From positions 2,048,001 to 2,112,000 of the forward strand of contig OZ242372.1 of assembly GCA_965209035.1 (NCBI GenBank): a stretch of 64,000 nt of DNA, given 5' to 3'. The notes under the pieces are model-generated. The model was not told the origin of the DNA and did not search any database. It worked only from the letters and a program-made list of their open reading frames with translations. A program made the position numbers and the translations under genes. The stretch's first letter is position 1; every line of letters begins with the position of its first letter. Source of the DNA: Gammaproteobacteria bacterium. Its GTDB lineage: Bacteria > Pseudomonadota > Gammaproteobacteria > CBDBNL01 > JAAOII01. Shown here one piece after another: positions 27,426 through 45,183 of this stretch.

Positions 27426-28145
27426 TTAATGCTTTGAAACACCAAATCTTCGATCTCGGCGAGCAAAAGAGCGAAGGGCATAACGAAAGTGTCGGACATT
27501 AAAATCAGGCCAAAGTTTTTCGGAAAAAAAGAATTCCGTATAAGCCATCTGCCATAAAAAGAAGTTACTAATGCGTTTTTCATCTCCCGTGCGAATACAA
27601 AGATCTATGGCGGGTTGTTCCGCAAGGCACAGATGTGCCGCCATTTCTTTTTCGGAAACCTGTTGCGGCAAGAGTTTTCCGTTTTGAACTTCAAGGGCAA
27701 TTTTTTTACAGGCGCGCACGATGTCCCAGCGACCGCCGTAATTCAAGGCAATATTTAAAGTCAAAGTTTGATTATTGCCGGTCAGTCGCTCGGCGTCTTC
27801 GATCTTGTTGATCAGACTTTTTGGAAATCCGGAGCGGTTGCCAATAAATAGCAGACGGACGGATTGTTTGTGCAAAGCGGAAGTTTCTTTGTCAAGAACC
27901 TCTTCAAACAGAGAGAGAAGTTGTCTGATTTCCCGGGACGGTCTGCTCCAGTTTTCGCTGCTCAGGGCAAACAGAGACAAGGACTTTGTTCCCTGACGAC
28001 AGGACTCCTTGACGACGTTGTGAATGGTTTTTATACCGGCCCTATGACCGTAAATGGGGGTTTTTGATTGTTGTTTCGCCCATCTTCTGTTGCCATCCAT
28101 GATAATGGCAATGTGCTTGGGTTTGCTTGTGACAAAGGATGCCAT
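27426..28145 (-). CDS. uppS: Undecaprenyl diphosphate synthase
   Basis: HIAIIMDGNRRWA, S.ENW.RP, NYGGR, IRT.DE.RISNF.LWQ. Confidence 0.96.
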   Translation of the reverse strand: MASFVTSKPKHIAIIMDGNRRWAKQQSKTPIYGHRAGIKTIHNVVKESCRQGTKSLSLFALSSENWSRPSREIRQLLSLFEEVLDKETSALHKQSVRLLFIGNRSGFPKSLINKIEDAERLTGNNQTLTLNIALNYGGRWDIVRACKKIALEVQNGKLLPQQVSEKEMAAHLCLAEQPAIDLCIRTGDEKRISNFFLWQMAYTEFFFSEKLWPDFNVRHFRYALRSFARRDRRFGVSKH

Positions 28146-28236
28146 TGGAAGCCTAAACTAAGAAAAAGACAGGGAAGGGTAATGTGTTCCGGGTTGACGA
28201 GCAAACATCTCATCGCATCGGTTCGACGGAAGGCGA

Positions 28237-28785
28237 TTAGAAAGAAGCGAGGTCTTCTTCTTTTTGATGCAGCAAGTGATCCGCCCGCTTAATGTATTCT
28301 TCGGTGATCTTGTCCGCTTCATTGCCCATACGTTTCTCATCGTCTTGGCTGGGCTCCAGTTTTTTGATTTTATGCAGCGTATCGCGTCGGACATTACGAA
28401 TGGCAATACGGGCCTGTTCGGCTTCGTTGCGTGCCTGTTTTTGGTAATCTTTGCGTGTTTCTTCCGTCAGCGGAGGAAGAGCGATTAACACCTCGCCTTT
28501 GTCATTGACATTTGGATTTAACCCCAAGGAAGATGCCAACAGGGCTTTTTGCACGGTCTCGGTTTGATTCTTATCCCACGGCGAGATACTCAAAGTGCGG
28601 GCGTCCAAAATTCGGATACTTGCCATTTGATTCAAGGGAGTTGGGTTGCCGTGATAATCGGCTTTGATATCTTCCACCAACGAACTGTGGGCTCTGCCGG
28701 TGCGCAACTTGTTAAAATGTTGATTAAGGACAAGAATGGCGTTATCCATACGCTTCTTCATGTCCGTTTCCAATTGTTTGTCCAT
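28237..28785 (-). CDS. frr: Ribosome recycling factor
   Basis: LRTGRA, LGLNP, PPLTEE.RK, AIRNVRRD; ATG 28785 preferred over TTG 28800. Confidence 0.95.
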   Translation of the reverse strand: MDKQLETDMKKRMDNAILVLNQHFNKLRTGRAHSSLVEDIKADYHGNPTPLNQMASIRILDARTLSISPWDKNQTETVQKALLASSLGLNPNVNDKGEVLIALPPLTEETRKDYQKQARNEAEQARIAIRNVRRDTLHKIKKLEPSQDDEKRMGNEADKITEEYIKRADHLLHQKEEDLASF

Positions 28786-28827
28786 AATTTCTTTTGTCAA
28801 AAATATTTAATCTAAAGTTTGAATTTT

Positions 28828-29535
28828 TTAATCTCGAATAAGTGTTCCCAAACTTTCACTGCGAACAACTTCTTTGAGCGCGCCTTCTTTCATGATACTG
28901 AAAACACGAATCGGCAGGGTATTGTCACGGGCAAGAGCAACTGCGGTAATGTCCATCACTTCCAGTTCCCGGCTAAGCACTTCCGCATAGGCAAGGAGCT
29001 CGTATTTTTTGGCATCGGCATTCTTTTGCGGATCGCGGTTGTAGATGCCGTCCACCTTGGTCCCTTTTAGTAGAATATCCGCTTCTATTTCTATGGCACG
29101 CAAGCAGGCGGCGGTATCCGTTGTGAAGAAAGGATTGCCTGTACCACCGCAATATATGACAACCTCACCGTCTCGCAGATACCGAATGGTGTTAAGCGGG
29201 TTGTGTCTTTCCAGAATGCCTGTGACCGATATGGCGGATACCAGACGACAGCGCACAGATTTCTTTTGCAAGGCATCCCGCAAAGCAATGCCATTGATAA
29301 TGGTTGCCAACATTCCCATCTGGTCGCCCGCCATTTTATTTACCCCGTGTTCTTGCAGTTGCCTTCCCCGAACCAGATTACCGCCGCCGACCACTATGCC
29401 GATTTCTATTTTTTCTTCGGCCAGTTCGGCCAGTTGTTGCGCGATGCTTTCCATCTGCTGTGATTGAAAACCCAGTTTACCGGTTCCCGCAAGAAATTCA
29501 CCGCTAATCTTTAGAAGAATTCTCTTGTAAAGCAC
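28828..29535 (-). CDS. pyrH: UMP kinase
   Basis: YKRILLKISGE, VVGGGN, D.MGMLAT..N, GTGNPFFTTD; GTG start immediately after the tsf stop. Confidence 0.95.
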   Translation of the reverse strand: MLYKRILLKISGEFLAGTGKLGFQSQQMESIAQQLAELAEEKIEIGIVVGGGNLVRGRQLQEHGVNKMAGDQMGMLATIINGIALRDALQKKSVRCRLVSAISVTGILERHNPLNTIRYLRDGEVVIYCGGTGNPFFTTDTAACLRAIEIEADILLKGTKVDGIYNRDPQKNADAKKYELLAYAEVLSRELEVMDITAVALARDNTLPIRVFSIMKEGALKEVVRSESLGTLIRD

Positions 29536-29536
29536 T

Positions 29537-31429
29537 CTAAAAACCGACTCGGATTTCGTTTTGTCCAATCTCACAACGGACAAAGGCGACCTTTTGGACA
29601 CCGGCATTTTTGAGAAGATCACCAATCTTTTGTTTCGGGTCCTTGATGGATGCCTGCTCGCTCAGAGACAATTCCTTGGCATACTTTTTTAATCTTCCTT
29701 CAATCATTTTGCTTTTAATTTCGGGCGACTTGTCTTCATCCTCTGTTTGCTTTATGTAGATTTCTTTTTCTTTGTTCAGGATTTCCGGGGAAACATCTTC
29801 CGGTCGCACAGCCTGCGGACTCATGGCGGCAACCTGCATTGCCAGATCGTAACACAATTGCAAATCGGGTTTATCCAATGCAACAATTGCTGCGATACGA
29901 CGATTTGTATGCAGATAGGATGCCACACAGCCGCCTTTTTCCGCACTCAGCCGAATAAAAGGCGCCAAAACAATGTTTTCTCCCATTTTTTGCCGCGTAT
30001 CGGCAAATAACTTTTCCGTTTCGTTGTCCTTTTCAAACAGCTCGTCCGGTTCGGAAGATTGCTGTTGGTGTGATTTGACTGCCAATGTTTCCGCAAGGCT
30101 GATCATATCCGCATTTCTGGCAACAAAGTCTGTTTCGCAGTTAATTCGGGCAATGGTCGCCGTGTTCGCTTCCGCTTCCGTATGCACAGCCAAGAGTCCC
30201 TGTAAAGCGTCCCTGTCCGCTTTCTTTAGTGCCTTAACCTTACCGGTAATACGTAACTGCTCTATTGCCTTTTCCGAATCCCCGCCGGTTTCAATCAGTG
30301 CTTTTTTACAGTCAAGAATACCCGCTCCCGTTATTTCGCGCAGTTTTTTAATGGTCGCCGCGCTGATGTCGCCCGAAGGAAGCGTCTGAATCGGCGGAAG
30401 CGGCTTTTTATCGGCTATATGATTGCCGTCTTGTGTTACGGCCTCCCGGTGTTCCTTATTGGAAGGCGATGCGGTGTCATTTGGGGTCGCAGATGCGGTG
30501 TTATCCCTGTTAGTTTGCGTCTCGGCTTCTGCCGTTTCCGTCCTTTGCTCCTTGGCGGGTCCTGTTCTTCTTTTAATAAGGGTGGTGTTAATATGTTTTT
30601 CGGGTTCCGGCTGCGGCGCATTGTCCGAGTCGTCTGCTTCTTCATTCGTTTCTTCGAACTGCCGGCCGATTCGCCGGCCCGAATGCTCTTGCTCGGATGA
30701 CTTTTGCCAATCCGGTTTCGTTTGCCCCGGGCCTATGCCTTCCTCTTCCGCCACCTTAGTTCCTTGCTTAAAAGAGTCCGTAATAGCGGTCAAGTATAGT
30801 TCAATCGCTTTCACCGAATCATCGTTACCGGGAATGGCATAATCGGCTTGGGAAGGATCACTGTTCGTGTCCACCACCGCAATCACAGGTATGCCGAGTT
30901 TAATGGCCTCGGCGGCGGCAATATGTTCATGCTTAATGTCAATGATGAACAGGGCATCCGGTAATCCGCCCATATCGCGAATACCGCCGATATTGCGTTC
31001 CAGTTTTAACATTTCCCGCCGACTCATCATTGCTTCTTTTTTGGTGAATTGATCCAAAGAGCCGTCCGTGCTTTTCTTTTCCAAGTCCTTCAACTTTTCT
31101 ATGGACGCGCTCACAGTTTTGTAGTTTGTTAGCATCCCGCCCATCCAGCGATGATTGACATAACATTGTCCGATAGATTGGGCATGCCGGCGAATGAGTT
31201 CGCGAGCGGTTTTCTTTGTCCCGACAAACAAAATTTTATTTTTTCTGCGGGCAATGTCATACACTGTTTCACTTGCCTGTCTGAGCCGAACAAGTGTCTT
31301 ACTTAGATCAATGACATGAATGTTGTTATAGGTGCCATAGATATATTTCCGCATTTTGGGATTCCAGTACCGAGCCCGATGCCCGAAATGTGCTCCCACT
31401 TTTAGCAGTTCGTTGATTGTAACTTCCAT
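29537..31429 (-). CDS. rpsB-tsf: Fused 30S ribosomal protein S2 / elongation factor Ts (630 aa)
   Basis: aa 1-~223 are S2 (GAHFGH..WNPKM, RW.GGMLTN, VDTN.DP, IPGNDD); aa ~354-630 are EF-Ts (IKKLRE.TGAG..DCKKAL, NCETDFVA); the frame is continuous. Confidence 0.92.
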   Translation of the reverse strand: MEVTINELLKVGAHFGHRARYWNPKMRKYIYGTYNNIHVIDLSKTLVRLRQASETVYDIARRKNKILFVGTKKTARELIRRHAQSIGQCYVNHRWMGGMLTNYKTVSASIEKLKDLEKKSTDGSLDQFTKKEAMMSRREMLKLERNIGGIRDMGGLPDALFIIDIKHEHIAAAEAIKLGIPVIAVVDTNSDPSQADYAIPGNDDSVKAIELYLTAITDSFKQGTKVAEEEGIGPGQTKPDWQKSSEQEHSGRRIGRQFEETNEEADDSDNAPQPEPEKHINTTLIKRRTGPAKEQRTETAEAETQTNRDNTASATPNDTASPSNKEHREAVTQDGNHIADKKPLPPIQTLPSGDISAATIKKLREITGAGILDCKKALIETGGDSEKAIEQLRITGKVKALKKADRDALQGLLAVHTEAEANTATIARINCETDFVARNADMISLAETLAVKSHQQQSSEPDELFEKDNETEKLFADTRQKMGENIVLAPFIRLSAEKGGCVASYLHTNRRIAAIVALDKPDLQLCYDLAMQVAAMSPQAVRPEDVSPEILNKEKEIYIKQTEDEDKSPEIKSKMIEGRLKKYAKELSLSEQASIKDPKQKIGDLLKNAGVQKVAFVRCEIGQNEIRVGF

Positions 31430-31553
31430 AATTTTCTTATTTCAAGGGTTGTAACAAATTCTCTTTTCTACAAACCGACGCTATGCGCACCCTGATCTGT
31501 AATGTAAAAAAAGAATGATAATATAATTAATTTTCCTGTAAATTATAACACAC
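31430..31553 (-). promoter_or_regulatory. rpsB extended -10 promoter and S2-type autoregulatory leader
   Basis: GTGTGTTATAAT at 31542-31553. Leader TACAGATC-AGGGTG-CGCATAGCG-TC-GGTTTGTA...ACAACCC resembles the gammaproteobacterial S2 leader (GGGU internal loop plus AACCC). Confidence 0.6.
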
Positions 31554-31749
31554 GGCGTTTGTAAAGAACAACTTGTGAGGCAAAAATTCTTATTACGCGG
31601 ACGGAAAAAGAATTCGTTTTGGAGAAAGGTTGCCCGGATAATAAACCGATGTCCGTCGATGTCCGTATTCTTTGGAATTTTGTGGGTTGCGACGACTTCT
31701 GCGGGATGATTCAATACGGACAAAACTTGTCTTTTTTAATCTAAAAAAT

Positions 31750-32149
31750 TCTATCGGCGACCCGGTTCTTGCAAAAATACCAAAAGTCCGAAAATAGGTG
31801 GGATTATACACGCTCATCCGCATCATCGGTGGCCGCCGCATTCCATCGGGTCGTGACAGCAAACGGCAGCACCCACTGGCATACCCATACTATTTTATTT
31901 TTGGGGAAACCACAAATGAATGCACACTGTGAACGATTCAATCGCACTCCTTAAAAATATCTCGGGGGAAGAGTTCGGTTGTCATATGCGACATCTCCTA
32001 TTTAAAGGATATGCCGGCATTCAATGCCAAGTTCATCGCATGGCTGGCTTGGTATCATCGCGAACATCCCCATTATGCTCTCAAACAACTCTCGCCGATC
32101 CGGTTTTTACAAAAATAAAAAAGTCCGAAAATAGGTAGGATTATATGCA
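31750..32149 (+). mobile_element. Degenerate IS481 3' fragments with two right ends; copied at ~36189-36588
   Basis: Frameshifted remnants of FHRVVTANGSTHW, KPQMNAHCERFNRT, EEFGCHMRHLL; ends GGTGGGATTATACA and GGTAGGATTATATGCA. Confidence 0.85.
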
Positions 32150-32224
32150 TGCAAACTTGTAAATCGGTGTTATAATGCTAACCTTATAAAAAAATTGTAT
32201 AAACCAGTAACTCTTAAATAAAAA

Positions 32225-34702
32225 ATGATCAATAAACTTAACCTTTTATCAGTTCGGTCGGCGAAAGGAACAGCCGGCCAACTGTCCCGCCCGGCATTCG
32301 CACGGGGTCTTAATAATGTTCCGAATACTTCAAAAGCTTTTTCAAAAGCTTTGATGTTGTTTGTTGGGCGAATTGCGTTGCCCTTAACGGCAGTTTCCAA
32401 TGCTTTCCGGCGGATGAAACGGTCATCTCGTTTGGCTCGTTTAGGTCGTTTAGTGTGCACCGTTCTGCTGGCAGGCACATTCGGCTTGGTCCTTGCCGGT
32501 TGTGGCGGAGGCGGCGGTTCCGGCGGCGGAGGCGGTGATCCTCGTGCTGTTGCCAAGATTGGAGTCAAGGCAGGTGAGGAGCATATTCTCGTGAGTTGGA
32601 ACAACCCGGATCAGGCGAATATCACCGGGTTCAATATTACTTGGGTCAATGTTGGTAATGATGCCGATGTGAACGATAAGGGAATGAGGATCCTTACTGA
32701 TGCTGATTTGCTGCAGCCCGGGAGTCGGGTGATGTACAACATTACGGGTCTAACCAATGGCAAACGCTATGAGATCAGGATTGCGGTGCTTTATGCGGAT
32801 GGCACATCCTCGACCTTGGTTTCCGTTCAAGGCACGGCCGGGATGGATCCGGGTGACGGCGGTGATCCCAATTTTCCGGCTGTTTCCAATGTCCAAGTCA
32901 TGGTCAGTGGAAATAATATTACCGTGAGTTGGACCAATCCGAGTCAGGATGGTCAGGAGGCTATCATCGGGTTCAATATTAATTGGATTAATGTGGATGA
33001 TAATGCCGATGCGAACGATAGAGGAATGGAACCATTTAATCCTCCCATGGCAAATGTTACAGCCGGTGCTTCGGTTACATATAAGATTCCGAATCTAAAC
33101 TATGACAACACCTACAAGATCACAGTTTCGGTGCGTTATGCGGGTCGTCAAGATCCCGTCCCTTCGACTGCGGTTGAAGGCAAAACCGGAATCAATCCGG
33201 ATATTGATGGTGATGGATTGTTGAATACGGATGATAATTGTCCGCTAGATAGGAATCCGGGGCAGGATGATAATGACACAGATGGGTCAGGCGATGCCTG
33301 TGATGATGACGATGACAATGATGGCACAAAAGACGCAGAGGATGCGTTTCGCACAGATGCATGTGCCAGTACCGACACGGATAAGGATGGCATGCCGGAT
33401 CGTTTGGTTGCCGGTTGTCAAAGTCCAACAGGCTTGACCGAAGACTCGGACGATGACAATGATGCTGTCCCGGATGAGACGGATGTGGATGACAATAATA
33501 ATAGTCTCATAGAAATTCGCAATTTGGATCAGTTAGCCCTACTGCGCGGCGATCTGAATGGCGATGGGGATGATGATGATGAGAATGACGGGATTACCGC
33601 GGTGGGCACTGTGGGTTGTCCGAGTTCCGGCTGTGCCGGTTACGAACTGACCCGCTCGCTCAATTTTAGCGATGCGGATTCCTATAACGGAAGCAGTGTT
33701 AATATGGACGACTGGACGGATCGCGATGGCAGCGGCTGGGTGCCGATTGGCTCCTGTGTTGCCGTTGATGATTGCACCCCTTATACGGGAATCTTTGATG
33801 GCAGGGATTATGCTCTTGCCGATCTGTTCATTGCTGCGGAGGCTACCGACAATGGAGTGGGCTTATTTAGTGCGTTCAATGGTAGTCTTCAAAATCTGCA
33901 TCTCCGGGATGTGAGTGTCAGTGGCGGTGCCAGTGATGTGGGTCTGCTGGTAGGCCATGGAAGGAATGCCCGTTATGTAAATCTGTTGGTTACTGGTGGC
34001 AGTGTGGTGAGTCCGGGATCCGACGTGGGCGGACTGGTTGGAGATGCGGATAGTGCGGAGATTCGCTATGCCGGTATATCCGATGTAGATGTTTCCGCGG
34101 GGGGAAATACTGTAGGCGGACTGGCTGGATCTGGGGAGATGATGGATATTCGCTATGCTTATGCATCCGACGGAAATATTTCCGGAGGCGCTCGTGTTGG
34201 CGAACTGGTTGGAGATGCTGATAATGCTGATATTCGCTATGTTTATGCGTCCGGCGGAAGTGTTGCAGGCAGCAGTGGTATTGGCGGACTGATTGGAGAT
34301 ATATCGAGCACTCAAATTCATGTTTCTTATTCCGCCACCGGATCTGTTTCAGGAGCTGGAATTGCTAGTGGCTTGTTCGGTATTTCCGATTCAGAAACCT
34401 TCGTCAATGTTTCCTATTGGGATACTCAGACCACCGGGCATTTAACCAATGACGGTAATTTTGGTGTGGGCTATACCACAACAGAATTGCAATCACCGAC
34501 CGATTTTACTACCGCCGGCGCGGATGGTTCGGACAATATCTATGCCGACTGGGACGGCATCTGGTGTCATCCGGACACGGGTGAAGTGATGGAAGTGGAT
34601 GATCAACCGGCCGGATTCTTAAGTGTTTGGGATCTTGGTAACGAGATGCAATACCCGGCTCTGAACTGCATGCCGGGCGGCCTCTCGGCACAGGGAAGAT
34701 AA
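32225..34702 (+). CDS. Surface lipoprotein/adhesin: 2 FnIII-like domains, thrombospondin type-3 repeats, GLUG-like domain
   Basis: Lipobox LAGC at Cys93 followed by a Gly linker; VSW.NP...YNITGL; DGDG..DNCP...GDACDDDDDNDG; GGLVG repeats; WDLG..YP.LNC end. Confidence 0.8.
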   Translation: MINKLNLLSVRSAKGTAGQLSRPAFARGLNNVPNTSKAFSKALMLFVGRIALPLTAVSNAFRRMKRSSRLARLGRLVCTVLLAGTFGLVLAGCGGGGGSGGGGGDPRAVAKIGVKAGEEHILVSWNNPDQANITGFNITWVNVGNDADVNDKGMRILTDADLLQPGSRVMYNITGLTNGKRYEIRIAVLYADGTSSTLVSVQGTAGMDPGDGGDPNFPAVSNVQVMVSGNNITVSWTNPSQDGQEAIIGFNINWINVDDNADANDRGMEPFNPPMANVTAGASVTYKIPNLNYDNTYKITVSVRYAGRQDPVPSTAVEGKTGINPDIDGDGLLNTDDNCPLDRNPGQDDNDTDGSGDACDDDDDNDGTKDAEDAFRTDACASTDTDKDGMPDRLVAGCQSPTGLTEDSDDDNDAVPDETDVDDNNNSLIEIRNLDQLALLRGDLNGDGDDDDENDGITAVGTVGCPSSGCAGYELTRSLNFSDADSYNGSSVNMDDWTDRDGSGWVPIGSCVAVDDCTPYTGIFDGRDYALADLFIAAEATDNGVGLFSAFNGSLQNLHLRDVSVSGGASDVGLLVGHGRNARYVNLLVTGGSVVSPGSDVGGLVGDADSAEIRYAGISDVDVSAGGNTVGGLAGSGEMMDIRYAYASDGNISGGARVGELVGDADNADIRYVYASGGSVAGSSGIGGLIGDISSTQIHVSYSATGSVSGAGIASGLFGISDSETFVNVSYWDTQTTGHLTNDGNFGVGYTTTELQSPTDFTTAGADGSDNIYADWDGIWCHPDTGEVMEVDDQPAGFLSVWDLGNEMQYPALNCMPGGLSAQGR

Positions 34703-34766
34703 GCAGATAAGCAAGTAAGCGAGAAGGCAAAGCGGACAAGCAAAAGCAAGAAGCAGACCGAAATCT

Positions 34767-34792
34767 CGTTTGGCTGCTTCGGCGAGCCAAAC
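34767..34792 (+). other. Hairpin with C-UUCG-G tetraloop downstream of the lipoprotein gene (copy near 39388-39412)
   Basis: GTTTGGCT-GC-TTCG-GC-G-AGCCAAAC is identical in both units while the surrounding sequence diverges. Confidence 0.6.
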
Positions 34793-35139
34793 AGATCGTT
34801 TTGGCGGCGATGCAGTGTCTATGCAGCAGCTGTGAAACGAAGATGAAGCGTCTGTGAAGCGTCTATGCATCTTCTGTGAAACGAAGACGAGTGTGCGGCC
34901 AAGAGTGCATCTTTAACAAGCGCCGATTTTTCTACAAGTTAAACCCCGCAATCGGGCGCGGCTGGGACGGATACGGTGGGACGGCAAGGCAAGTCCGCCG
35001 GCTGTGTTTCTGATGCCGGTGAGATCGCGAATGAGCATCCTATCCTTTTCATCTCTTTTTCTTTTTTTACGGATGCCCGTATCCGCTTATTCTTGTTATA
35101 ATGTATCTATTAAATGTATCTATCTAAAAGATTTGTTCT

Positions 35140-35844
35140 ATGAGTTGGCTAAATAAGATTGTTTCCGGGGTTTCCGGCACGGAGTCCCGTAAAAAGGAAG
35201 TTCCGCAGGGTCTTTGGCAGAGGTGCACCTCGTGCAGTGCGGTTCTTTACAAACCCGAATTGGAAAAGAATCTGAATGTTTGCGGTAAGTGTGATTTTCA
35301 TATGCCGTTGCCCGCCGGTAAGCGATTGGACTTTTTCCTGGATAAGGGCGAAAGAATCAAACTGGGCGAAAAAATTCTGCCTGCGGATCCGTTGCGCTTT
35401 AAGGATAGCAAGCGATATAAAGACCGTTTGACACAGGCACGCACGGACAGCGGCGAAGATGAGGCCCTGTTGGTGATGGAGGGCACATTGGAAACGCGTC
35501 CCGTGGTTGCCGCCGCATTTGAGTTTAAATTCATGGGAGGGTCTATGGGTTCGGCGGTGGGACAACGATTTGTGGCGGGAGTCGAAGTCTGTTTGAAAAA
35601 ACGAATCCCCTATATTTGCTTTTCCGCCAGCGGCGGGGCGCGCATGCAAGAAGGATTAATTTCGCTGTTTCAAATGTCCAAAACCAGTGCCGCTCTCGCC
35701 AGACTTGCCGAGGAGAAGATTCCTTATGTTTCCGTGATGACCCATCCGACCTATGGCGGTGTCAGTGCCAGTTTGGCCCTGCTGGGTGATATTAATATAG
35801 CCGAACCGCGCTTGACTTATCAGCAGCTCATCGGGAGGCGGTAG
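35140..35844 (+). pseudogene. accD: Truncated accD copy (224 codons) fused to a foreign tail [10 protein letters not shown]
   Basis: Protein identical to 39742..40602 up to EPR; lacks GFAG.RVI and the C-terminus. Confidence 0.9.
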
Positions 35845-36169
35845 GTGAGCAGATGAGAAAGAAAGTGGCTGCAGCCGCCTCGCTAGCATGGTGTTTATCA
35901 GGATTGGAGTTTGAGGCAACACGATGAAGAAGACCCATTCAAAAGAAGATCCTCGGTGCAAGATCAAGTTGCAAGAGTTTGAGGAATTTTTCAGGCATCT
36001 GGCGAGTGCCAAGAAGTCCAAGACGTTAAAGGGTCAAGCGGGTTATGATCCTACCAAGAAAGAATTGGCACAGAGGTTTCAATATGATCCTAAAACAAAA
36101 AAAATTAATTTAATCGAAGAATGATCCGTACTTTCTTATTTTTTATGGGTAATCAAGTATATAATTCCC
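35813..36169 (+). mobile_element. Probable IS1595-family right-end remnant with a small passenger ORF
   Basis: RLTYQQLI resembles IS1595 transposase C-termini; the end reads GGGAATTATATACTTGATTACCC on the minus strand (36147-36169), exactly at the duplication junction. Confidence 0.55.
35924..36124 (+). CDS. Small basic hypothetical protein (66 aa)
   Basis: ATG with GAGG upstream; lies inside the putative IS1595 remnant. Confidence 0.45.
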   Translation: MKKTHSKEDPRCKIKLQEFEEFFRHLASAKKSKTLKGQAGYDPTKKELAQRFQYDPKTKKINLIEE

Positions 36170-36663
36170 CTTTTTTAATCTAAAAAATTCTATCGGCGAC
36201 CCGGTTCTTGCAAAAATACCAAAAGTCCGAAAATGGGTGGGATTATACACGCTCATCCGCATCATCGGTGGCCGCCGCATTCCATCGGGTCGTGACAGCA
36301 AACGGCAGCACCCACTGGCATACCCATACTATTTTATTTTTGGGGAAACCACAAATGAATGCACACTGTGAACGATTCAATCGCACTCCTTAAAAATATC
36401 TCGGGGGAAGAGTTCGGTTGTCATATGCGACATCTCCTATTTAAAGGATATGCCGGCATTCAACGCCAAGTTCATCGCATGGCTGGCTTGGTATCATCGC
36501 GAACATCCCCATTATGCTCTCAAACAACTCTCGCCGATCCGGTTTTTACAAAAATAAAAAAGTCCGAAAATAGGTAGGATTATATGCATGCAAACTTGTA
36601 AATCGGTGTTATAATGCTAACCTTATAAAAAAATTGTATAAACCAGTAACTCTTAAATAAAAA

Positions 36664-39336
36664 ATGATCAATAAACTTAACCTTTTATCAGTTCGGTCGG
36701 CGAAAGGAACAGCCGGCCAACTGTCCCGCCCGGCATGTGCACAGGGCATTCATCATTCTGTCCCAAATGTTTATCCTTTAATAAGGCTATTTACCGGGCG
36801 GATTATATCGCCGCTAACTGCGGTCTTTTTTAATGCTAATGCCGGCCTGCGGATGAAACGGCCGTCTCGCCCGTCTCGCCCGTCTCGTTTATCTCGTTTA
36901 ATATGCACCGTTCTGCTGACAGGACTATTCGGTTTGGTCCTGGCAGGTTGTGCTGGCGGTGGTGGCGGCAGTGGCGGCGGCAACTCTATTTCTTCCAACA
37001 TCTCGGTTGTCTCGAACATTCAAACCCTGGTCGGCGAGGATCATATTCTCGTGGGTTGGACCAATCCGGCTGAGGAGAATATTACGGGGTTTAATATTGT
37101 TTGGTTCAATGTTGCCAATGTGAGTGATGGCGACATGGCGGAACTTAATGCTACCGGCGCGGATGTTTTGCAAGGTGCCCGTGTGATATACAACATTACG
37201 GGTTTAACCAATCAAATCACCTATAACATCACGATTGCGGTACTTTATGAGAACGGCGATGTCGGGCTGTCATCTTCTGTGGGTAGCAGGGCCGGAGCGG
37301 ATGCGGGTGTGGGTACGGATATTGATCTTGATGGTACTAATAATGACGACGATGCGTTTCCGACGAATGCCTGTGCGAGCACCGATACGGATAATGATGG
37401 TGATCCGGATAGTGTGGTTGCCGGTTGTCAAACAGACTTGACGGCGGACCCGGACGATGACAATGACGGTGTGAATGATCTTGCCGACGACGGAATGAGT
37501 CCGTTAGATGCATGTCCGCGCGGCGATACAGGCTGGACTTCCGATACAACGACGGACCATGACAACGACGGCTGTCGCGATGACAGCAACGAGGATTTGG
37601 ACGATGACAATGACGGTGTGAATGATCTTGTGGATCTTTGCCGGCGGGGGGAAACGAGCTGGAAATCCAATAGGATGACGGATAATGACGGTGACGGTTG
37701 TCGTGATGCCGATGAGGATCCGGATGATGACAATGACGGCACAGAGGACACGGCGGATGTGGATGACAATAATAATAGCCTGATAGAGATTTACACTTTG
37801 GATGACTTGGTGCGGCTACGCGATGATCTGGATGGCAATGGGGTGGATGATGGCAATAACGGCACCATTACCGCTGTGGGTTCTGTGGGTTGCCCGGTCC
37901 CAGATGGCTGTGCCGGTTACGAACTGACCCGCTCGTTGAATTTTAGCGATGCGGATTCCTATAACGGAAGCAGTGTTAATATGGACGACTGGACGGATCC
38001 TGCCGGCAGTGGCTGGGTGCCGATTGGCGAATGTTCTGATACGAATACTTGCAACGCCCGTTATACGGCAACCTTTGACGGCGGCGGTTATCATATTGCC
38101 GATCTGTTCATCTCTGCGGCTGATGATGCGATTGGAGTGGGGTTATTTGCCTCTTTACAAGATGGTAGCATTCAAAATTTGCGTCTCTTGAATGCGAATG
38201 TTAGCGGTGGTGCCGCTAATGTGGGTCTGCTCGCGGGCTTTAGCGGCTCGGCTCGTTATGAAAATCTGTCGGTGATTGGGGGAACGGTAACGAGTCCGCT
38301 GCGGAATCGAGTGGGCGGGATGATCGGTTACGCGGAGAGCGTGAGCGCGAGCGGGTCGCACGTTGAGATTCGTAATTCCTATGTATCCGATATTGTTGTT
38401 TCCGGTAATGCTCAAGTCGGCGGTCTGATTGGTCAAGTCGGCGATATGGCTGGTCAAGTGGACGAGGCTACGATTCGTACTGTGTCTGTGTTCAATGTCA
38501 CTGTTACCGGTCGGGGGGCGGGGGTCGGCGGTCTGATTGGTCAGGCGGACGAGGCTACGATTCGTGCTGTATCCGTGTTCAATGTCAATGTCAATGTCAC
38601 TGTTACCGGTGCCGTTCGGGGGGTCGGTGGCCTGGTCGGAGTGGTGGATGCTGCTATGATTCGTGCTGTGTCCGTATTCGGTGGCACTGTTACCGGTAAT
38701 AATAATGTCGGCGGCATGATCGGTGACAGACCGGATGGTGGAAGCATTCCTGGCGGCACTCCAAATTTGGAGCCTGTTGAGATTCATCATTCCTATGTGT
38801 CCGGCGTAGATGTTTCCGGTGATAATCAAGTCGGCGGTTTGATTGGCAGAGGAGATATTAGTACTATTAATCATTCCTATGTGGTCGGCGGCACTGTTGA
38901 CGGTAGTAATAAGATCGGTGGTCTGGTTGGCGCTGGCGGGCCCGATATTCGTTATTCCTATGCGGCTACTCCTGTCTCGGGCAGCGGGAATGTCGGCGGG
39001 TTACTTGGTTCCAATGAGACACTTAGCACTTTCACACCAACGGTTATCGCCTCCTATTGGGATAATGAAATCACGGGACAGCCAACCAGTGTGGGCGGTG
39101 GAATGGGCCTGACCACCAACGCTCTGCAAAGCCCGACTACTTTCACAGGCATCTATGCCGATTGGGATAATTTTTGGTGTGATCCGAGGACGGGCGAAGT
39201 GAGAGAGGATTCTACTACTGACGGTCTGGGTGCCCCCTTTGTCCCTGTCTGGGATCTGGGCGAGACAGGCCAATACCCCGTTCTGAACTGTCTTTCTGTC
39301 AGCGTAGAAGATCAACAGCAACAGCAGCGGCAGTAG
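36664..39336 (+). CDS. Surface lipoprotein/adhesin: FnIII-like domain, expanded TSP3-like repeats, GLUG-like domain
   Basis: Lipobox LAGC at Cys96; D.D.DGC.D repeats; VGGLIG repeats; WDLG...YPVLNC end; paralog of 32225..34702. Confidence 0.8.
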   Translation: MINKLNLLSVRSAKGTAGQLSRPACAQGIHHSVPNVYPLIRLFTGRIISPLTAVFFNANAGLRMKRPSRPSRPSRLSRLICTVLLTGLFGLVLAGCAGGGGGSGGGNSISSNISVVSNIQTLVGEDHILVGWTNPAEENITGFNIVWFNVANVSDGDMAELNATGADVLQGARVIYNITGLTNQITYNITIAVLYENGDVGLSSSVGSRAGADAGVGTDIDLDGTNNDDDAFPTNACASTDTDNDGDPDSVVAGCQTDLTADPDDDNDGVNDLADDGMSPLDACPRGDTGWTSDTTTDHDNDGCRDDSNEDLDDDNDGVNDLVDLCRRGETSWKSNRMTDNDGDGCRDADEDPDDDNDGTEDTADVDDNNNSLIEIYTLDDLVRLRDDLDGNGVDDGNNGTITAVGSVGCPVPDGCAGYELTRSLNFSDADSYNGSSVNMDDWTDPAGSGWVPIGECSDTNTCNARYTATFDGGGYHIADLFISAADDAIGVGLFASLQDGSIQNLRLLNANVSGGAANVGLLAGFSGSARYENLSVIGGTVTSPLRNRVGGMIGYAESVSASGSHVEIRNSYVSDIVVSGNAQVGGLIGQVGDMAGQVDEATIRTVSVFNVTVTGRGAGVGGLIGQADEATIRAVSVFNVNVNVTVTGAVRGVGGLVGVVDAAMIRAVSVFGGTVTGNNNVGGMIGDRPDGGSIPGGTPNLEPVEIHHSYVSGVDVSGDNQVGGLIGRGDISTINHSYVVGGTVDGSNKIGGLVGAGGPDIRYSYAATPVSGSGNVGGLLGSNETLSTFTPTVIASYWDNEITGQPTSVGGGMGLTTNALQSPTTFTGIYADWDNFWCDPRTGEVREDSTTDGLGAPFVPVWDLGETGQYPVLNCLSVSVEDQQQQQRQ

Positions 39337-39741
39337 ACTGTCAGCAGCGGGTAAGTAGAAACGGAATAAAAAAGCAGACCAGGTCTCGTTTGGCTGCTTC
39401 GGCGAGCCAAACAGATCGCTTTGGCAGCGATGCAGCGGCTATGAAGATGCCGTGAAGCAGCAATGCAGTGTCTGTGAATCTTCTGTGAAACGGCGATGCG
39501 TGCGCGGCCAAGAGTGCATCTTTAACAAGTGCCGATTTTTCTACAACTTAAACTAAACCCCGCAATCGGGCGGGGCTGGGAAGGTAGGACAGTGGGACGG
39601 CAAGGCAAGCCGGCCGGCTGTGTTTCTGATGCCGGTGAGCTCGCGAATGGGCATCCTATCCTTTTCATCTCTTTTCTTTTTTTACGGATGCCCCTATTCC
39701 GTTTGTTCTTGTTATAATGAATTTATTGAAAGATTTGTTCG

Positions 39742-40602
39742 ATGAGTTGGCTAAATAAGATTGTTTCCGGGGTTTCCGGCACGGAGTCCCGTAAAAAGGA
39801 AGTCCCGCAGGGTCTTTGGCAGAGGTGCACCTCGTGCAGTGCGGTTCTTTACAAGCCCGAATTGGAAAAGAATCTGAATGTTTGCGGTAAGTGTGATTTT
39901 CATATGCCGTTGCCCGCCGGGAAGCGATTGGACTTTTTCCTGGACAAGGGCGAAAGAATCAAACTGGGCGAAAAAATTCTGCCTGCGGATCCGTTGCGCT
40001 TTAAGGATAGCAAGCGATATAAAGATCGCTTGACACAGGCACGTACGGATAGCGGCGAAGATGAGGCCCTGTTGGTGATGGAGGGCACATTGGAAACGCG
40101 TCCCGTGGTTGCCGCCGCATTTGAGTTTAAATTCATGGGAGGGTCTATGGGTTCGGCGGTGGGACAACGATTTGTGGCGGGAGTGGAAGTTTGTTTGAAA
40201 AAACGAATCCCCTATATTTGCTTTTCCGCCAGCGGCGGGGCGCGCATGCAAGAAGGATTAATTTCGCTGTTTCAAATGTCCAAAACCAGTGCCGCTCTCG
40301 CCAGACTTGCCGAGGAGAAGATTCCTTATGTTTCCGTGATGACCCATCCGACCTATGGCGGTGTCAGTGCCAGTTTGGCCCTGCTGGGTGATATTAATAT
40401 AGCCGAACCGCGCTCGGACATAGGTTTTGCCGGTAAGCGCGTGATCAAACAAACGGTCAAGCAGACACTGCCCGAGGGCTTTCAAACCAGTGAATTCCTG
40501 TTAGAACACGGCGCCTTGGATTTAATCGTGCAGCGGGATGAACTGCGAACAAAAATTGCCTCGCTTCTCAATATTCTTTATCCTCTCGCCAAAGCAGACT
40601 GA
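39742..40602 (+). CDS. accD: Acetyl-CoA carboxylase carboxyltransferase beta subunit
   Basis: CxxC..CxxC zinc finger, [33 protein letters not shown]. Confidence 0.97.
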
Positions 40603-40725
40603 GGTTCCGAACCGGTTACCGGTTTTGCCGTACATAGCAAAGATGCCCGGCTTCTTAAATGGCTTCTTGCAAGGGCTTCTTAAATAATTTCTTAAGCGGC
40701 TTCTTAAATGATATCTTAAATAGAT

Positions 40726-42117
40726 ATGCCACCAATGACCCCGGAAGCACCGGAAGCATACATTAAAGAACAGATAGCAAAGCAGGGGCTGTCTGCGGAA
40801 GATGTGTTGCTCGGGTTGGACCGGATATCGGCTGTCCTCGGACGCACGGAGATTCGCCCGCCGCCGTTTATTTTTACGATTGCGGGGACCAACGGGAAGG
40901 GAAGTTGTGCCAATCTTATTTATCAGGCACTATTGGTTGCGGGTTATCCGGCGGCATTTTTTTCTTCGCCGCATTTGTTGCGGTTTAACGAACGGGCGCA
41001 AATCAACGGCGAGGAAGCACATAACGAAGAATGGTTGGCTTCTCTGGAAAGAGTGCACCGTGCCAAACAAAAAGTCAAACTAACCTACTTTGAATATTGC
41101 ACTTTGGCCGCTTTGGATATCTTTTCTCGCAGGTCCGCGTTTCCTTGGGTTTTGGAGGTGGGTTTGGGCGGCCGTTTGGATGCGGTGAATGTTCTTGATA
41201 CAAACTGCGCGGTGATTACTTCCATCGACATAGACCATACGGACAGGCTGGGTAAGGACCGTGTGTCTATCGGGCACGAAAAAATGGGTATTGCGAGGAG
41301 AGGTGTGCCGTTGATATGCGGCGAGCCGTCTCCGCCGGCTGAAGTCATTAATGCCGCAGAGCAAGCGGGTGCGAAATTGTTGTGTGTTAATCGCGATTAC
41401 GGCGTTCGGGGCAAGGGCCTAACCGAGTGTTGTTTTGCGGAAGAGCCGATCGTCGAATACTATGCTTCTCGCCGCTTTGTCCGGGGTAACACCGATGACC
41501 CGCAAACCGATGCACTAAAAAGAGAGCCGGCGGTGTTGTGTGCCACAAACGAAGATCAGTTGGCGGTGAACCTGGCAACCGCTTGGCAGGCGTTGAATGT
41601 TTTTGACGACAAATGGGATGCGGATCTTGTCGCCGCGACCTGGCATAAAGCCCGATTAATCGGCAGGTGGCAAAAGATCCGTTTCGGTCAACATCTTTTG
41701 ATTTTGGATACGGGGCATAACCCGCAAGCGGCGCGCATCCTGGTGCATAGGCTGCAAGAAAAGATCTTTCCATATGCCCGGGCGGAAATTATCTTTGCGA
41801 TGCGCGCGGACAAAGACTGGCAAGAGTTTTTAAAAATCACCTCGCCTCATATTAAAGAATGGCATCTTTTCCCGCTGTTTATGCAAACCGACGAGGGTGC
41901 GCCCAAAGAAATCTCCGTTGCCAAAACTTCTTTGGAGAGAGCATTGAATCGTTTGCACGCCCGCACCCATTGGTACGATCATGCCAAGCAATTGCTACAA
42001 TCGCTTCGTCTCAGAAGTGAGCCGACTGTGTTTTGGGTTTGCGGTTCTTTTCACACATTGGGCGAAGTGATGCAACAATTACGGGAGGACACCCCGGCCG
42101 TCAAAGCGGTGTCTTGA
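40726..42117 (+). CDS. folC: Folylpolyglutamate/dihydrofolate synthase
   Basis: IAGTNGKGS, SPHL.RFNER, LEVGLGGRLDAVN, DH..LG, D..HNP, GSF; follows accD. Confidence 0.94.
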   Translation: MPPMTPEAPEAYIKEQIAKQGLSAEDVLLGLDRISAVLGRTEIRPPPFIFTIAGTNGKGSCANLIYQALLVAGYPAAFFSSPHLLRFNERAQINGEEAHNEEWLASLERVHRAKQKVKLTYFEYCTLAALDIFSRRSAFPWVLEVGLGGRLDAVNVLDTNCAVITSIDIDHTDRLGKDRVSIGHEKMGIARRGVPLICGEPSPPAEVINAAEQAGAKLLCVNRDYGVRGKGLTECCFAEEPIVEYYASRRFVRGNTDDPQTDALKREPAVLCATNEDQLAVNLATAWQALNVFDDKWDADLVAATWHKARLIGRWQKIRFGQHLLILDTGHNPQAARILVHRLQEKIFPYARAEIIFAMRADKDWQEFLKITSPHIKEWHLFPLFMQTDEGAPKEISVAKTSLERALNRLHARTHWYDHAKQLLQSLRLRSEPTVFWVCGSFHTLGEVMQQLREDTPAVKAVS

Positions 42118-42336
42118 CGGACTTGATGGATACCGGTTTTGAATTTTGCTGTTTTGCTGTTTTGTGGTGGCGAAACTTTCCATCGCTTACCCGCTTTCTT
42201 TTTATTTTGATCAAGAATTAAATACGAAACAGCAGAATTCACAATGCGCTGCCTTCCGCAGGATGCGTCTGCTATCCGGTTTAAGCCGGTGCCGAGCGAA
42301 TAATCAGTGCGGGTAGATTTTGGGAATATATCCGGA

Positions 42337-42444
42337 CTGGCTGGCTTGGGATCATCTTGAGCGTCCCCATTATGCTCACAAACAACTATCGTCGATCCGG
42401 TTTTTGCAAAAACAAAAAAATCCGGGAATGGGTGGGATCATGCA
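42337..42444 (+). mobile_element. IS481 right-end remnant upstream of the giant lipoprotein gene
   Basis: CATTATGCTCACAAACAACT...GGGTGGGATCATGCA; TATAAT follows at 42465-42470. Confidence 0.8.
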
Positions 42445-43741
42445 AAAACCGACATTCTTTAGTGTATAATATATATGTGTTTGGAAATATTGTTTATTTT
42501 TCGTATGATGGCGACCGATGATTGCGACCGGATGCCGCATTACGATTCTTACGCAAGGGATGTTCGTGTCTCTGTTTTTTATTTCCTTAAGAACATTTTT
42601 CACATTATTAAAACTACAAATATATAGGAGAAAATAATATGTATCATATACACCTCATCATTAGTAACCTGATTAATAATTCCATTAATCGGGTTCATTC
42701 AATTGGAAGTTCGGTTGCAAATGCGATTGCAAATACAATTGCAAATACAATTAGAATCTCAACTGTGATTAAAGGAAACATTAAAGGAAGCTGCGGGAAA
42801 GAAGCATCGTCTTTTGCCCGATGGCGAATAACACAGGTCCTGCCGGGTTCTTTAAATCTGCGCGCCTTTGGATTTGTGTCTGTTCTCTGCTTGGCATCGT
42901 TTCTCACGGCATGTGCGGTTTCCTCCGATAGTGGATCCGCTGCCCCCGCTCCCGACCCAAAGGATCCTCGCTCCGTATTTTCGCACGCGAGTTACAACCT
43001 GGTCGGTTGGGGGGAGACTACGACATCGGCTAATCAGGTCTTAGGAAAGGTGGTTCTGGAACCGAATGAGGTTCTCGCACTCTTGCCGGAAGGAGTGAGT
43101 TCGTATAATACTTCTTTTCAACTGGAAGGCAGTGAACTTGCCAATGAGTTTTTTGGGGTGAACGACGCGGGCGAGATCCGTTTCAAAGATGGAAATAGTT
43201 ATGGTCGCGAATTCCAATTGCACTATGTGGTTAATGTGTTAGAGGTTTCCGAGTTTGAAGTGGTGGCAAGGATCTCCTATACGAATGCCGCCGGTGAATC
43301 GGTTAATGTGGAACATCGTGTTACTATCAAGATTGCGGCTGTTGCAATCGATCCACAAATTACCAACTTTGTCCGGTTTGATGGCAAGGCTGACGAAACT
43401 GTACAAAATCAAACTAAAACATACGGGCTGAGTGGCACAATTCCTGAAAACAGTGATCCCGGGACACCTGTAAGCGGTACGGGTAATTTACTGACAGGTC
43501 TGGGAATTAGCACGGTGATTCCGGATGATGCGGAAGAGCAGGGATACCCTAGCGGATTCACGCCAACAATTTACTATCAACTGGCATCCGCTCCCGGCGA
43601 TACCTCTTGCATGGGCCGCTATTATGTGGACAATCAGAATAATCGCGCTCGGGTGCGTTCGGATATCGGCGATGCCTTGAATTACGAGGCGGAAGGACGC
43701 AACAACGCATGTGCTTTGCAAGCCTCCTTGAACGGAGTGGA

Positions 43742-44908
43742 TTATGAGAATGTAACGACCGGGGCCCTGTCAGCCGAAGATTTGGAAAATGTGGAGGAGC
43801 TTGTTGGTGCTGTGAGTTTCGGTGTTGATGCGTCTTGCACGAACAATGTTACGGCGGCAAAAGACTTGGAAACCTGTAGTGTATGATCCCACCCATTTCT
43901 GGACTTTTTTTGTTTTTGCAAAAACTGGATTGGCGAGAGTTGTTTGAGAGCATAATGGGGACGTTCCAGATTATACCAAGCCAACCACTCGATGAGTTTG
44001 GCGTTGAATGCTGGCATATCCTTAACCAAGAGATGCCGCATATGACAACCGAACTCTTCCCAGAGAGTGCGATTAAACCGTTCGCAGTGTGCATTCATTT
44101 GCGGTTTCCTTGGATAGGTATACCAGTGGGTGCTGCCGTTTGCGGTCACGACCCGGTGAAAGTCTTTGGCGAACTCACTGCCATTATCGGTGAGGACTTT
44201 TTCGATCCGAGTGCCGAGTATGTTTTGCATGGCGGTAAAGAGCTGGGCGGAACTGGCCGAAGCAGCCGAGGTGTCGACACTGACCAGTGAGAAGCGGGAA
44301 AATAGATCAATGCCGACATGCCAATAAAAGCGCCGGCCATCGACGATGCGGACGAGCGTATCAAAGGCAACACATTCACCTCTCCGGCCCGCAACAAAGC
44401 GGATGTCCTTGCGCTCGCGCGGAGCACCTTGCCGCAGGCGTTTCGGCACGGACCGCGATGGTTTGCACCGCATCTTATCCGGGTCATCGGCAATGATGCG
44501 AGAGAGCGTTGATTGGCTGGGCAGCGGCAGCCCGCGCTGCTGACACCATTCGGGTAACAAGCAGACCAGTTTACCGGCACCGATGTTCGGACGCTCTTGT
44601 CGCCAAGATCGGATCTTGGTAATCAGTGCCGGTGGCCAGGTGTTGGACCGCTTGGGCTGATACCCATAGTTGTTCGCCAGTTCATCGACCCCGCCTTCAC
44701 GGAAACGCCGCTGCCACTCGTAGAATGTAGCACGACTGATCCTGGCATGATCCAACGCGGCCGCGACACCATGTTTGCGCGCGAACGCTAAGGTGTCCAG
44801 TTTGATTTTGGTGGTTTTAGACATGTTTGAATATTTGTTTGCTAAAACCACCATTTTATTGAAACCGCGCACGCGATAACCAATGTAGTGTAAACGTGTT
44901 CCTCTCAT
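43742..44908 (-). CDS. IS481-family transposase, reading through the IR into host DNA
   Basis: Near-identical to 12621..13697; everything after NGWDHT is antisense host sequence. Confidence 0.9.
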   Translation of the reverse strand: MRGTRLHYIGYRVRGFNKMVVLANKYSNMSKTTKIKLDTLAFARKHGVAAALDHARISRATFYEWQRRFREGGVDELANNYGYQPKRSNTWPPALITKIRSWRQERPNIGAGKLVCLLPEWCQQRGLPLPSQSTLSRIIADDPDKMRCKPSRSVPKRLRQGAPRERKDIRFVAGRRGECVAFDTLVRIVDGRRFYWHVGIDLFSRFSLVSVDTSAASASSAQLFTAMQNILGTRIEKVLTDNGSEFAKDFHRVVTANGSTHWYTYPRKPQMNAHCERFNRTLWEEFGCHMRHLLVKDMPAFNAKLIEWLAWYNLERPHYALKQLSPIQFLQKQKKSRNGWDHTLQVSKSFAAVTLFVQDASTPKLTAPTSSSTFSKSSADRAPVVTFS

Positions 44909-45183
44909 TTCAAATCACCTCCGCGGTGCAGCCGCTCTCGCACACCGTACCGTCTTGCCAGCGGATACACCTAGACAGTTTTATCAACAACAAGCCTCCG
45001 CTGTCTGCGGCGGTGAGAGCAAAACAGCTATCCATCTTTCTTGCCCGTTTCATTCATCTAGCTCCACATACCGGAGACCCGTTGCCGGATCTATTTTCGA
45101 CCCGTCCGACAGAACATCCGGCTGCTTGATCTGAGGACGCACAATACCAAACTCAGAGTCCAGAACCTTTATGAGATCATGCA
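43880..45183 (-). mobile_element. IS481-family insertion sequence, copy B (1304 bp)
   Basis: Ends TGTATGATCCCA and TGAGATCATGCA; 5-bp TSD TGTAG at 43875-43879 and 45184-45188. Confidence 0.92.

Follow-up and report, generated by a model that had tools for sequence, protein, structure and literature searches.

Two dissimilar lipoprotein genes in tandem upstream of accD in a gammaproteobacterium, a probable outcome of duplication and recombination with related-strain DNA

Between rpsB-tsf (minus strand, 29537-31429) and accD-folC (plus strand, 39742-42117), a gammaproteobacterial genome of 2.24 Mb in two contigs (assembly GCA_965209035.1) carries two collinear units, each with a gene for a predicted lipoprotein (LP1 and LP2). 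The window analyzed here is the 64,000-nucleotide stretch that comprises bases 2048001-2112000 of contig OZ242372.1 (C1 below); positions are counted from its first base, except where contig coordinates are marked by C1 or serve as names of genes elsewhere in the genome. Most likely, two members of one lipoprotein family came to stand side by side at this locus through duplication and through recombination with DNA from a related strain, and not as parts of a purpose-built apparatus for antigen switching. Neutral divergence between the units falls into separate classes, namely 0.35% in the upstream block A, 6.5% at the synonymous sites of accD, and 11.5% in the spacer, and LP1 and LP2 are not diverged duplicates but members of different clades of their family.

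Results

The segments 31731-35811 and 36170-40413 are collinear and in direct order, and they meet at a new junction with a truncated gene, which together mark a tandem segmental duplication (Table 1). The duplicated segment consists of block A, a lipoprotein gene, a spacer, and accD codons 1-224, and its copies are joined via 359 bp of orphan filler (J). A first-pass annotation of this sequence had reported near-identity of the units over 567 bp upstream, covering an insertion sequence (IS) remnant, a promoter-like box, and the first 24 codons; we recover it as 565 of 567 identical positions (differences at 31796 and 32025), the remnant being debris of the IS481 family. Similarity between block A and its counterpart A' begins abruptly at 31731/36170 and stops just as abruptly at 32297/36736. 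At the other end of the repeat, where silent changes only had been reported over 224 accD codons, the truncated accD' (35140-35811) differs from accD (39742-40413) at 10 positions, all of them third-position and synonymous, and similarity is absent from 35813 onward. In the spacer alignment, 41 of 355 aligned columns are mismatched and a further 35 contain gaps, the mismatch rate being 16.7%, 8.4%, and 8.1% over successive thirds; the lipoprotein bodies are 45-75% alike, with 15-75% identity in 100-bp windows and many gaps. The repeat falls into discrete identity classes, which change sharply at 32297/32298 and 35126/35127. Block A is less diverged than the spacer (Fisher p = 9e-16) and less diverged than the synonymous sites of accD (Fisher p = 7e-6), so that identity remains non-uniform after alignment. 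The argument of the annotation that drift after duplication would not give such uneven divergence is borne out by these discrete classes with their sharp borders, by the different clades of the two proteins, and by an outlying 94-bp island.

The accD differences correspond to a pS of 0.065 (10 differences over 155 synonymous sites), with none of the 517 non-synonymous sites changed. Under random placement, the probability that all 10 would be synonymous is 4e-7; if four-fifths of the changes had fallen in the stump and one-fifth in the constrained gene, it would be ~1e-4 by our estimate. Thus, accD' and accD drew apart at a time when each was still functional. The right flank seems constant because accD is under purifying selection, and the "constant flanks" of the annotation accordingly hold for block A but not for the right-hand side, which is 6.5% diverged at synonymous sites. 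All 10 differences lie within 35202-35589, and the final 222 bp of the repeat are free of any.

The lipoproteins belong to a very large family. A phmmer search with LP1 and LP2 against all 4547 open reading frames (ORFs) of at least 100 aa returned 91 ORFs at E <= 1e-5. Because this figure takes in LP1, LP2, some fragments, and one or more antisense ORFs, the family comprises roughly 85-90 genes. In a maximum-likelihood tree of 81 heads, the LP2 head is sister to the last head (826412_2125) of a 2610-aa paralog at C1:826412-834244 (81% aa identity; SH-like approximate likelihood ratio support 100), and the LP1 head groups with those of 1414568 and 1471299 in a clade of three (support 98). The approximately unbiased test rejects a sister clade of LP1 and LP2 (delta lnL 147.5, p = 0.003). 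At the DNA level, the LP2 head (37756-39262) is 82-85% identical to the 826412-834244 paralog over ~1.5 kb, versus 50-70% to LP1. While the LP2 head groups with one head of this giant multi-head protein, its N-terminal modules group with other paralogs. Past residue 60, nearly all 60-residue windows of both proteins match another paralog better than the tandem partner; the exceptions are the window holding the island, which is tied (85.2% vs 85.0%), and one leader window that slightly favors the partner. For no part of the LP1 or LP2 bodies does the genome hold a donor that is at least 80 bp long and 95% or more identical, the best non-partner DNA matches (at least 80 bp at 80% or more) being 90% over 120 bp and 84.8% over 846 bp. 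For accD and the 375-bp spacer, the genome holds no copy outside this locus.

The island for which the annotation had counted 2 mismatches (33629-33722 in LP1, 37906-37999 in LP2) is indeed identical at 92 of 94 positions (97.9%), within flanks that are 72% alike. This value ranks sixth among the 1953 pairs formed by 63 paralogs, behind five pairs of recent duplicates whose flanks are identical at 0.90 or more. No pair scores higher among the 1729 whose flank identity is below 0.8, a group with its 99.9th percentile at 90.4%; we therefore dropped mere family-wide conservation as its explanation. The LP2 island is 94.7% identical to that of the 826-kb paralog, whose flanks are 85.6% alike, which fits the LP2 clade, and the LP1 island is out of keeping with the flanks of LP1. 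The island is thus a short tract within LP1 that is of LP2 type. It corresponds to residues 55-85 of the LP1 head model, in the cap region, with the rungs of the beta-helix beginning near residue 96.

To place the junction in reads, we used read-derived k-mer contigs from runs X1, X2, and X3, which come from one sample; this is probably the source of the assembly, so the runs are not independent of it. A 417-bp contig over 35783-36199, present in X1 and X2 with 0 mismatches, leads from accD-type sequence through J into A-type sequence. Contig depths in X1 are 9.7-10.3 for unit 1, 11.6 for J, 10.8-13.8 for unit 2, and 13.6 for the right flank; the corresponding depths in X2 are 17.3-18.6, 18.5, 13.8-14.7, and 16.2. 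The depths in both runs fit a single molecule on which everything occurs once. At 37970-38336, the sole X1/X2 contig has 23 differences and a 6-bp insertion relative to the assembly, at a depth of 23-28, above that of the unit-specific contigs; it could stem from a second strain with its own version of LP2, or be a chimera that includes k-mers of a paralog. Variant contigs of this kind are present in the sample, and contigs cannot tell strains, paralogs, and switching apart. In run X4, from another sample with the same species label, 184 of 250 reads are 90-95% identical to the region; at a depth of ~1, with no read on the filler and ~12% of the run read, it is too thin for statements on the locus.

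The two proteins differ in architecture much as the annotation had described, with two versus one FnIII domains and unequal TSP3 and GLUG repeats, although the one FnIII domain of LP2 is sub-threshold. LP1 is built of two fn3 domains, TSP3-like motifs, and a predicted capped beta-helix head, in this order, whereas in LP2 a single fn3-like domain is combined with a larger number of TSP3-like motifs and with a beta-helix head that is longer than that of LP1. Against Pfam fn3 (PF00041; cut-off 25 bits), LP1 scores 64.2 bits in two stretches and LP2 20.9 bits in one, which is below the cut-off. Pfam TSP_3 (PF02412; cut-off 25 bits) gives a sub-threshold 15.7 bits for LP1 and no match for LP2, and paralogs carry PF02412 in precomputed annotation; the calcium-type motif DxDxD[GN]xxD occurs three times in LP1 and six times in LP2. 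Pfam Glug (PF07581; cut-off 20.5 bits) likewise stays below threshold, at 8.7 bits in six stretches of LP2 and without a match in LP1. Many paralogs carry PF07581, and strict rung motifs number four in LP1 and eight in LP2. The LP1 head (411 aa, modeled from a 40-row alignment) is predicted to form a capped beta-helix with a mean pLDDT of 83.8 and a pTM of 0.86. The best matches to this model in the Protein Data Bank (PDB) come from 3n6z (E = 2e-4, TMq 0.42) and from 7uvk, an IgA1 protease (E = 2.9e-3); a PDB sequence search with LP2 found nothing. The predicted fold is thus shared with 3n6z, a putative IgA1 protease of Bacteroides ovatus, and with the N-terminal domain of M26 IgA1 proteases (7uvk, 6xja), but sequence identity is 14-18%, a protease domain is absent, and the head is fused to a lipoprotein signal and to fn3 and TSP3-like modules.

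Both proteins contain a lipobox (L-x-G/A-C), recognized by pattern and by inspection, in the contexts MKRSS...LVLAGC (Cys 93) in LP1 and ...LVLAGC (Cys 96) in LP2. Block A reaches 24 codons into the longest ORF, and the canonical signal peptide (MKR...LAGC) begins only at codon 64, which leaves two candidate start codons per gene, at 32225/36664 for the long ORF and at 32414/36853 for the signal peptide. The in-frame extension of 60-90 residues before the signal peptide (MNQLHFFPVRSAKAM... or MINKLNLLSVRSAK...) occupies 32225-32413 and 36664-36852 and recurs in many paralogs. Its ATG is conserved and preceded by an A-rich stretch, and it has no Pfam match up to an E value of 10; it may extend the signal region or be translated as a leader. 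At 36862-36890, the charged start of the LP2 signal peptide is encoded by an in-frame 9-bp tandem repeat of ~2.8 copies (PSRPSRPSR), where the LP1 sequence differs. Homopolymer tracts of the phase-variation type were not found in LP1, LP2, or block A. At C1:48587 and 1575239, long poly-C runs stand just ahead of the called start of family ORFs without a signal peptide; neither LP1 nor LP2 has such a run.

Comparison by blastx with an intact transposase from the same window (12621-13697; Pfam HTH_32, rve, and rve_3) resolves the IS debris of block A into two decayed right ends: positions 84-418 match the last 110 residues of the transposase (243-352), spread over three frames and interrupted by a stop, and positions 15-80 are a second, shorter remnant of the extreme right end. 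The intact element is ~1.3 kb long; besides this copy, the genome contains 20 others that are at least 1298 bp long and 94-99% identical (~21 in total). A DDE (rve) transposase, an N-terminal helix-turn-helix, an element of ~1-1.3 kb, and many copies all agree with membership of IS481; the label itself rests on the best annotated match, a plasmid-borne "IS481 family transposase" that is only 35% (34.7%) identical in amino acids. Downstream of the debris, an extended -10-like box, TGTTATAAT, lies at 32168 and 36607, 57 bp ahead of the ATG of the long ORF, and several paralogs have similar GTTATAAT boxes 55-90 bp before theirs; as matches to a consensus, these are putative promoters, and in a promoter and terminator scan the counts did not exceed those of shuffled sequence (16 vs 12.7 and 14 vs 9.8). 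We considered block A as a discrete mobile unit and dropped the idea, its first 14 bases and its ends being unrepeated elsewhere.

Genome-wide, IS481-type right ends show a strong association with family genes. Among 71 BLAST hits of the 305-bp remnant, 29 are found shortly upstream of a family ORF and on its strand, at distances of 25-787 bp, with one overlapping the ORF start by 74 bp; 25 of the 91 ORFs are concerned, where ~2 would be expected by chance. Five to six of the 21 full-length copies stand 53-103 bp before a family ORF, and in one tandem array of family genes only the last 63 bp of the IS end precede each gene. This link could reflect target preference, an outward promoter, or a role in the spread of the genes. 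Within the window, IS481-type sequence is found at 31745-32148, 36184-36587, 42338-42441, 12357-13655, and 43877-45183.

Elsewhere in the family, the leader and the cap island are conserved, and most of the other ORFs examined also show a lipobox-type signal. A second pair with a shared leader and diverged bodies is formed by 2139835 and 718346, which are 97.5% identical over 161 bp and 67% in the body. Tracts of 60-295 bp are shared at 96% or more by 24 of the 2505 paralog pairs that are less than 82% identical overall; most are TSP3-type repeat modules of ~140 bp, as in 1654147 and 724562, which reach 97-98% there in a pair that is 71% alike overall. These shared tracts suggest module-level conversion or recent module amplification. 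We found nothing in the literature specific to this lipoprotein family.

In three related complete genomes that we inspected, the accD-folC order is kept and a family lipoprotein directly upstream of accD was not found. Thus, insertion of the lipoprotein at accD is specific to this lineage.

Discussion

We see about an even chance that this locus arose by a recent tandem duplication followed by homologous replacement with a diverged allele of the same locus or, in an equivalent variant, by a single event that joined two alleles in tandem. Both A blocks, the accD' stump, and the junction with its filler would date from the duplication. In a second step, ~3.3 kb in one unit would have been replaced by a diverged allele from a related lineage through homologous recombination, the tract extending, in unit 1 coordinates, from 32298 to ~35590, with crossovers in the leader (32297/32298) and inside accD. 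A recent duplication explains the near-identity of A and A' and of the outer parts of accD, and replacement by a diverged allele explains the synonymous-only differences in accD, the divergence of the spacer, and the unrelated bodies. Because accD and the spacer occur only here, a donor with both arms would have to be an allele of this locus from another lineage, or the sister unit, and not a paralog elsewhere. The occurrence in run X4 of a lineage with reads 90-95% identical, under the same species label, is in keeping with such an allele. The leader and accD are plausible homology arms. The anchored recombination proposed by the annotation therefore stands in part: recombination shaped the locus, but accD and the spacer, unique as they are, cannot anchor exchange with paralogs. 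The island would be a micro-conversion between the neighboring units or a surviving patch of the pre-replacement copy. The outcome would be two distinct surface lipoproteins with identical promoter blocks, in which allelic diversity has been turned into paralog diversity as a by-product of ordinary recombination.

Several points weigh against this reconstruction. The clustering of the accD differences is modest, the probability of finding none in the last 222 bp being ~0.02. Retention of the island as an old patch is weaker than a later micro-conversion, because a heteroduplex across bodies that are 50-70% alike is implausible. The J bin has a depth of 8 in X3, against ~29 in its flanks, which could mean a mixed population; the k-mer contigs of the X1-X3 sample each cover only part of the stretch, and we saw no single read across both units. 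In amino-acid identity, the closest accD reaches 62% among metagenome contigs (80 loci kept) and 70% among 30 relatives, with no second strain in either set, and the nearest LP2 relative outside the genome is at most 48% identical where at least 58% of the query is covered. With relatives so distant, the donor allele is hypothetical.

An older history would begin with an in situ duplication that included a full second accD, with both copies long functional; deletion or IS-mediated truncation would have come later, block A and the island would have been homogenized by conversion, and at least one body would have been replaced from the family. The spacer is diverged, and graded, as an old repeat would be, the island would demonstrate that short conversion between the units occurs, and the nested IS right ends in block A are a sign of repeated IS activity there. 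We hold this history to be doubtful, if a serious contender, since it needs more events, among them conversion of block A exactly to the left limit of the repeat, and requires that a redundant essential gene be kept, fully constrained, over a long time. The absence of any change at 517 non-synonymous sites would be unexpected for a redundant copy, and neither the accD 3' part nor folC has left a trace in the filler. That the assembler instead concatenated two strain haplotypes of a single-copy locus seems to us the least probable of the readings considered here. Purely synonymous accD differences are what the alleles of two strains would show, the sample is mixed, with variant contigs such as that at 37970-38336 (23 differences, greater depth), and the depth of the J bin in X3 is low; but the new junction is present in the reads, in the 0-mismatch contig over 35783-36199 and at single-copy depth in X1 and X2, and an assembler would not invent 359 bp of unique filler. 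Moreover, unit 1, J, and unit 2 are about equally deep in X1 and X2, and in X1 they also equal the flank, whereas the units of two concatenated haplotypes would sum to it.

The annotation had gone on to propose that modules are exchanged from a wider paralog pool, as in antigenic variation, and this part is not supported. In Neisseria pilE/pilS and Borrelia vlsE, one expressed gene is accompanied by promoterless partial cassettes and by near-identical donor segments in the same genome. The present locus is like these systems in its conserved flanks, its variable surface-protein core, and the large reservoir of related sequence in the genome. Copying of bodies or modules from the ~90-paralog pool between fixed anchors, at high frequency, would also suit the conserved family leader and cap island, the 24 of 2505 diverged pairs with tracts in common (60 bp or longer, 96% or more), the grouping of the LP2 head and N-terminal modules with different paralogs, and the second case of a shared leader with diverged bodies (2139835 vs 718346). 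However, neither silent cassettes nor near-identical donors were found when both were looked for. No part of LP1 or LP2 has a donor at 95% or more over at least 80 bp, and because both genes are complete behind identical promoter blocks, there is no layout of expression site and silent cassettes; the other family ORFs, too, mostly have a lipobox signal. In addition, accD and the spacer could not serve as anchors for exchange with paralogs, neither gene has a homopolymer tract, and no recombinase or G4-type element was noticed beside the locus, though no systematic search for one was made. Programmed cassette-type variation is therefore very unlikely. A different conjecture, which we rate as quite unlikely, is that a decayed IS481-type right end with the conserved leader might serve the whole family as a landing pad and a portable promoter. 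Behind such pads, homologous recombination would insert or exchange new lipoprotein genes, among them alleles of co-resident strains, the ~90-gene repertoire would grow by capturing allelic diversity, and this locus would be a fresh example.

For duplication followed by allele replacement, the closest published analogue that we found, taken as an analogy only, is found in Streptococcus pneumoniae. At its pspC locus, IS1167 lies between two different variants of the gene in tandem, "as already described in other clinical isolates," in the words of the passage that describes the locus (PMC10383233). As that passage has it, pspC is a highly polymorphic surface-protein locus at which, in some pneumococcal genomes, two very different variants are adjacent with IS sequence at the joint (PMC10383233), and in these respects the present locus resembles it. 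Unlike at pspC, the repeat here adds the stump of a housekeeping gene and an identical 567-bp promoter block, and protein family and organism are unrelated; pspC also has strain surveys, whereas this locus is known from one genome. Merodiploids of S. pneumoniae that arise by natural transformation carry tandem partial duplications from recombination with incoming DNA, with repeated (IS) sequences involved, according to the relevant passage of the source (PMC3784515). By analogy, merodiploidy generated by transformation is a possible route to this locus, although the junction here is an illegitimate join with filler and not a repeat-to-repeat one.

Read in this way, the locus is a datable snapshot of growth in a very large surface-protein family, in which duplication and inter-lineage recombination make neighbors of two alleles. 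The synonymous-only differences in a dead accD stump provide an unusually clean internal marker of the entry of DNA from a diverged lineage into an uncultured bacterium. The case also cautions that constant flanks around a variable core need not imply a dedicated antigen-switching device. The lipoprotein family itself is more unusual than the tandem arrangement of two of its members.

Additional Features of the Locus

Table 1. Features of the tandem lipoprotein locus and its neighbors (positions in the window)
Feature	Position	Strand	Description
rpsB + tsf as one 630-aa ORF	29537..31429	-	Left bound of the locus; Pfam Ribosomal_S2 (1e-88) and EF_TS (3.5e-52); TIGR01011, TIGR00116
Block A, unit 1	31731..32297	+	IS481-family right-end debris, ~150 bp of promoter/leader, first 24 codons of the long ORF
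LP1, 825-aa lipoprotein (longest ORF)	32225..34702	+	Signal peptide ATG at 32414; lipobox Cys 93
94-bp island in LP1	33629..33722	+	Codes for the cap directly ahead of the first beta-helix rung
Spacer, unit 1	34750..35139	+	LP1 stop to accD' start; locus-specific
accD', truncated copy	35140..35844	+	224 accD-homologous codons, then 10 unrelated codons and a stop; Pfam Zn_ribbon_ACC, partial Carboxyl_trans
Filler J, duplication junction, 359 bp	35812..36169	+	Orphan DNA; 66-aa ORF at 35924-36124
Block A', unit 2	36170..36736	+	Near-identical to block A
LP2, 890-aa lipoprotein	36664..39336	+	Signal peptide ATG at 36853; lipobox Cys 96
94-bp island in LP2	37906..37999	+	Native to the LP2 clade
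Spacer, unit 2	39365..39741	+	Aligned against 34750..35139
accD, full length, 286 aa	39742..40602	+	TIGR00515, 390.6 bits (cut-off 317.45); positions 1-280 of 285 covered
folC-like Mur ligase	40726..42117	+	accD-folC order kept in relatives

Filler J is unique in the genome except for a 115-bp match at 73% identity (C1:1350223-1350337), where a short ORF begins like the 66-aa ORF of the filler (…SKE…KIKL.EFE.F…). We found no similarity between the filler and the region upstream of rpsB, the 3' part of accD, or folC, and a tblastx search against the genome returned only the self-match. The 66-aa ORF has no protein homologue, its sole Pfam match having an E value of 0.042, and an Rfam scan of 28000-44000 gave no match at E values up to 0.1.

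In the rpsB-tsf ORF, S2 and EF-Ts are joined by an acidic low-complexity linker of ~115 residues, with no stop and no obvious tsf start, so that it is either a true fusion or a case of unusual restart. To the right of folC, a third lipoprotein of 415 aa is encoded at 42639-43886 (plus strand), with the lipobox LTAC and no Pfam match. Ahead of it, at 42338-42441, the final 104 bp of the IS end recur at 85% identity, and the N-terminal part of the protein resembles, by eye, the start of the giant lipoproteins at C1:186873-202012.

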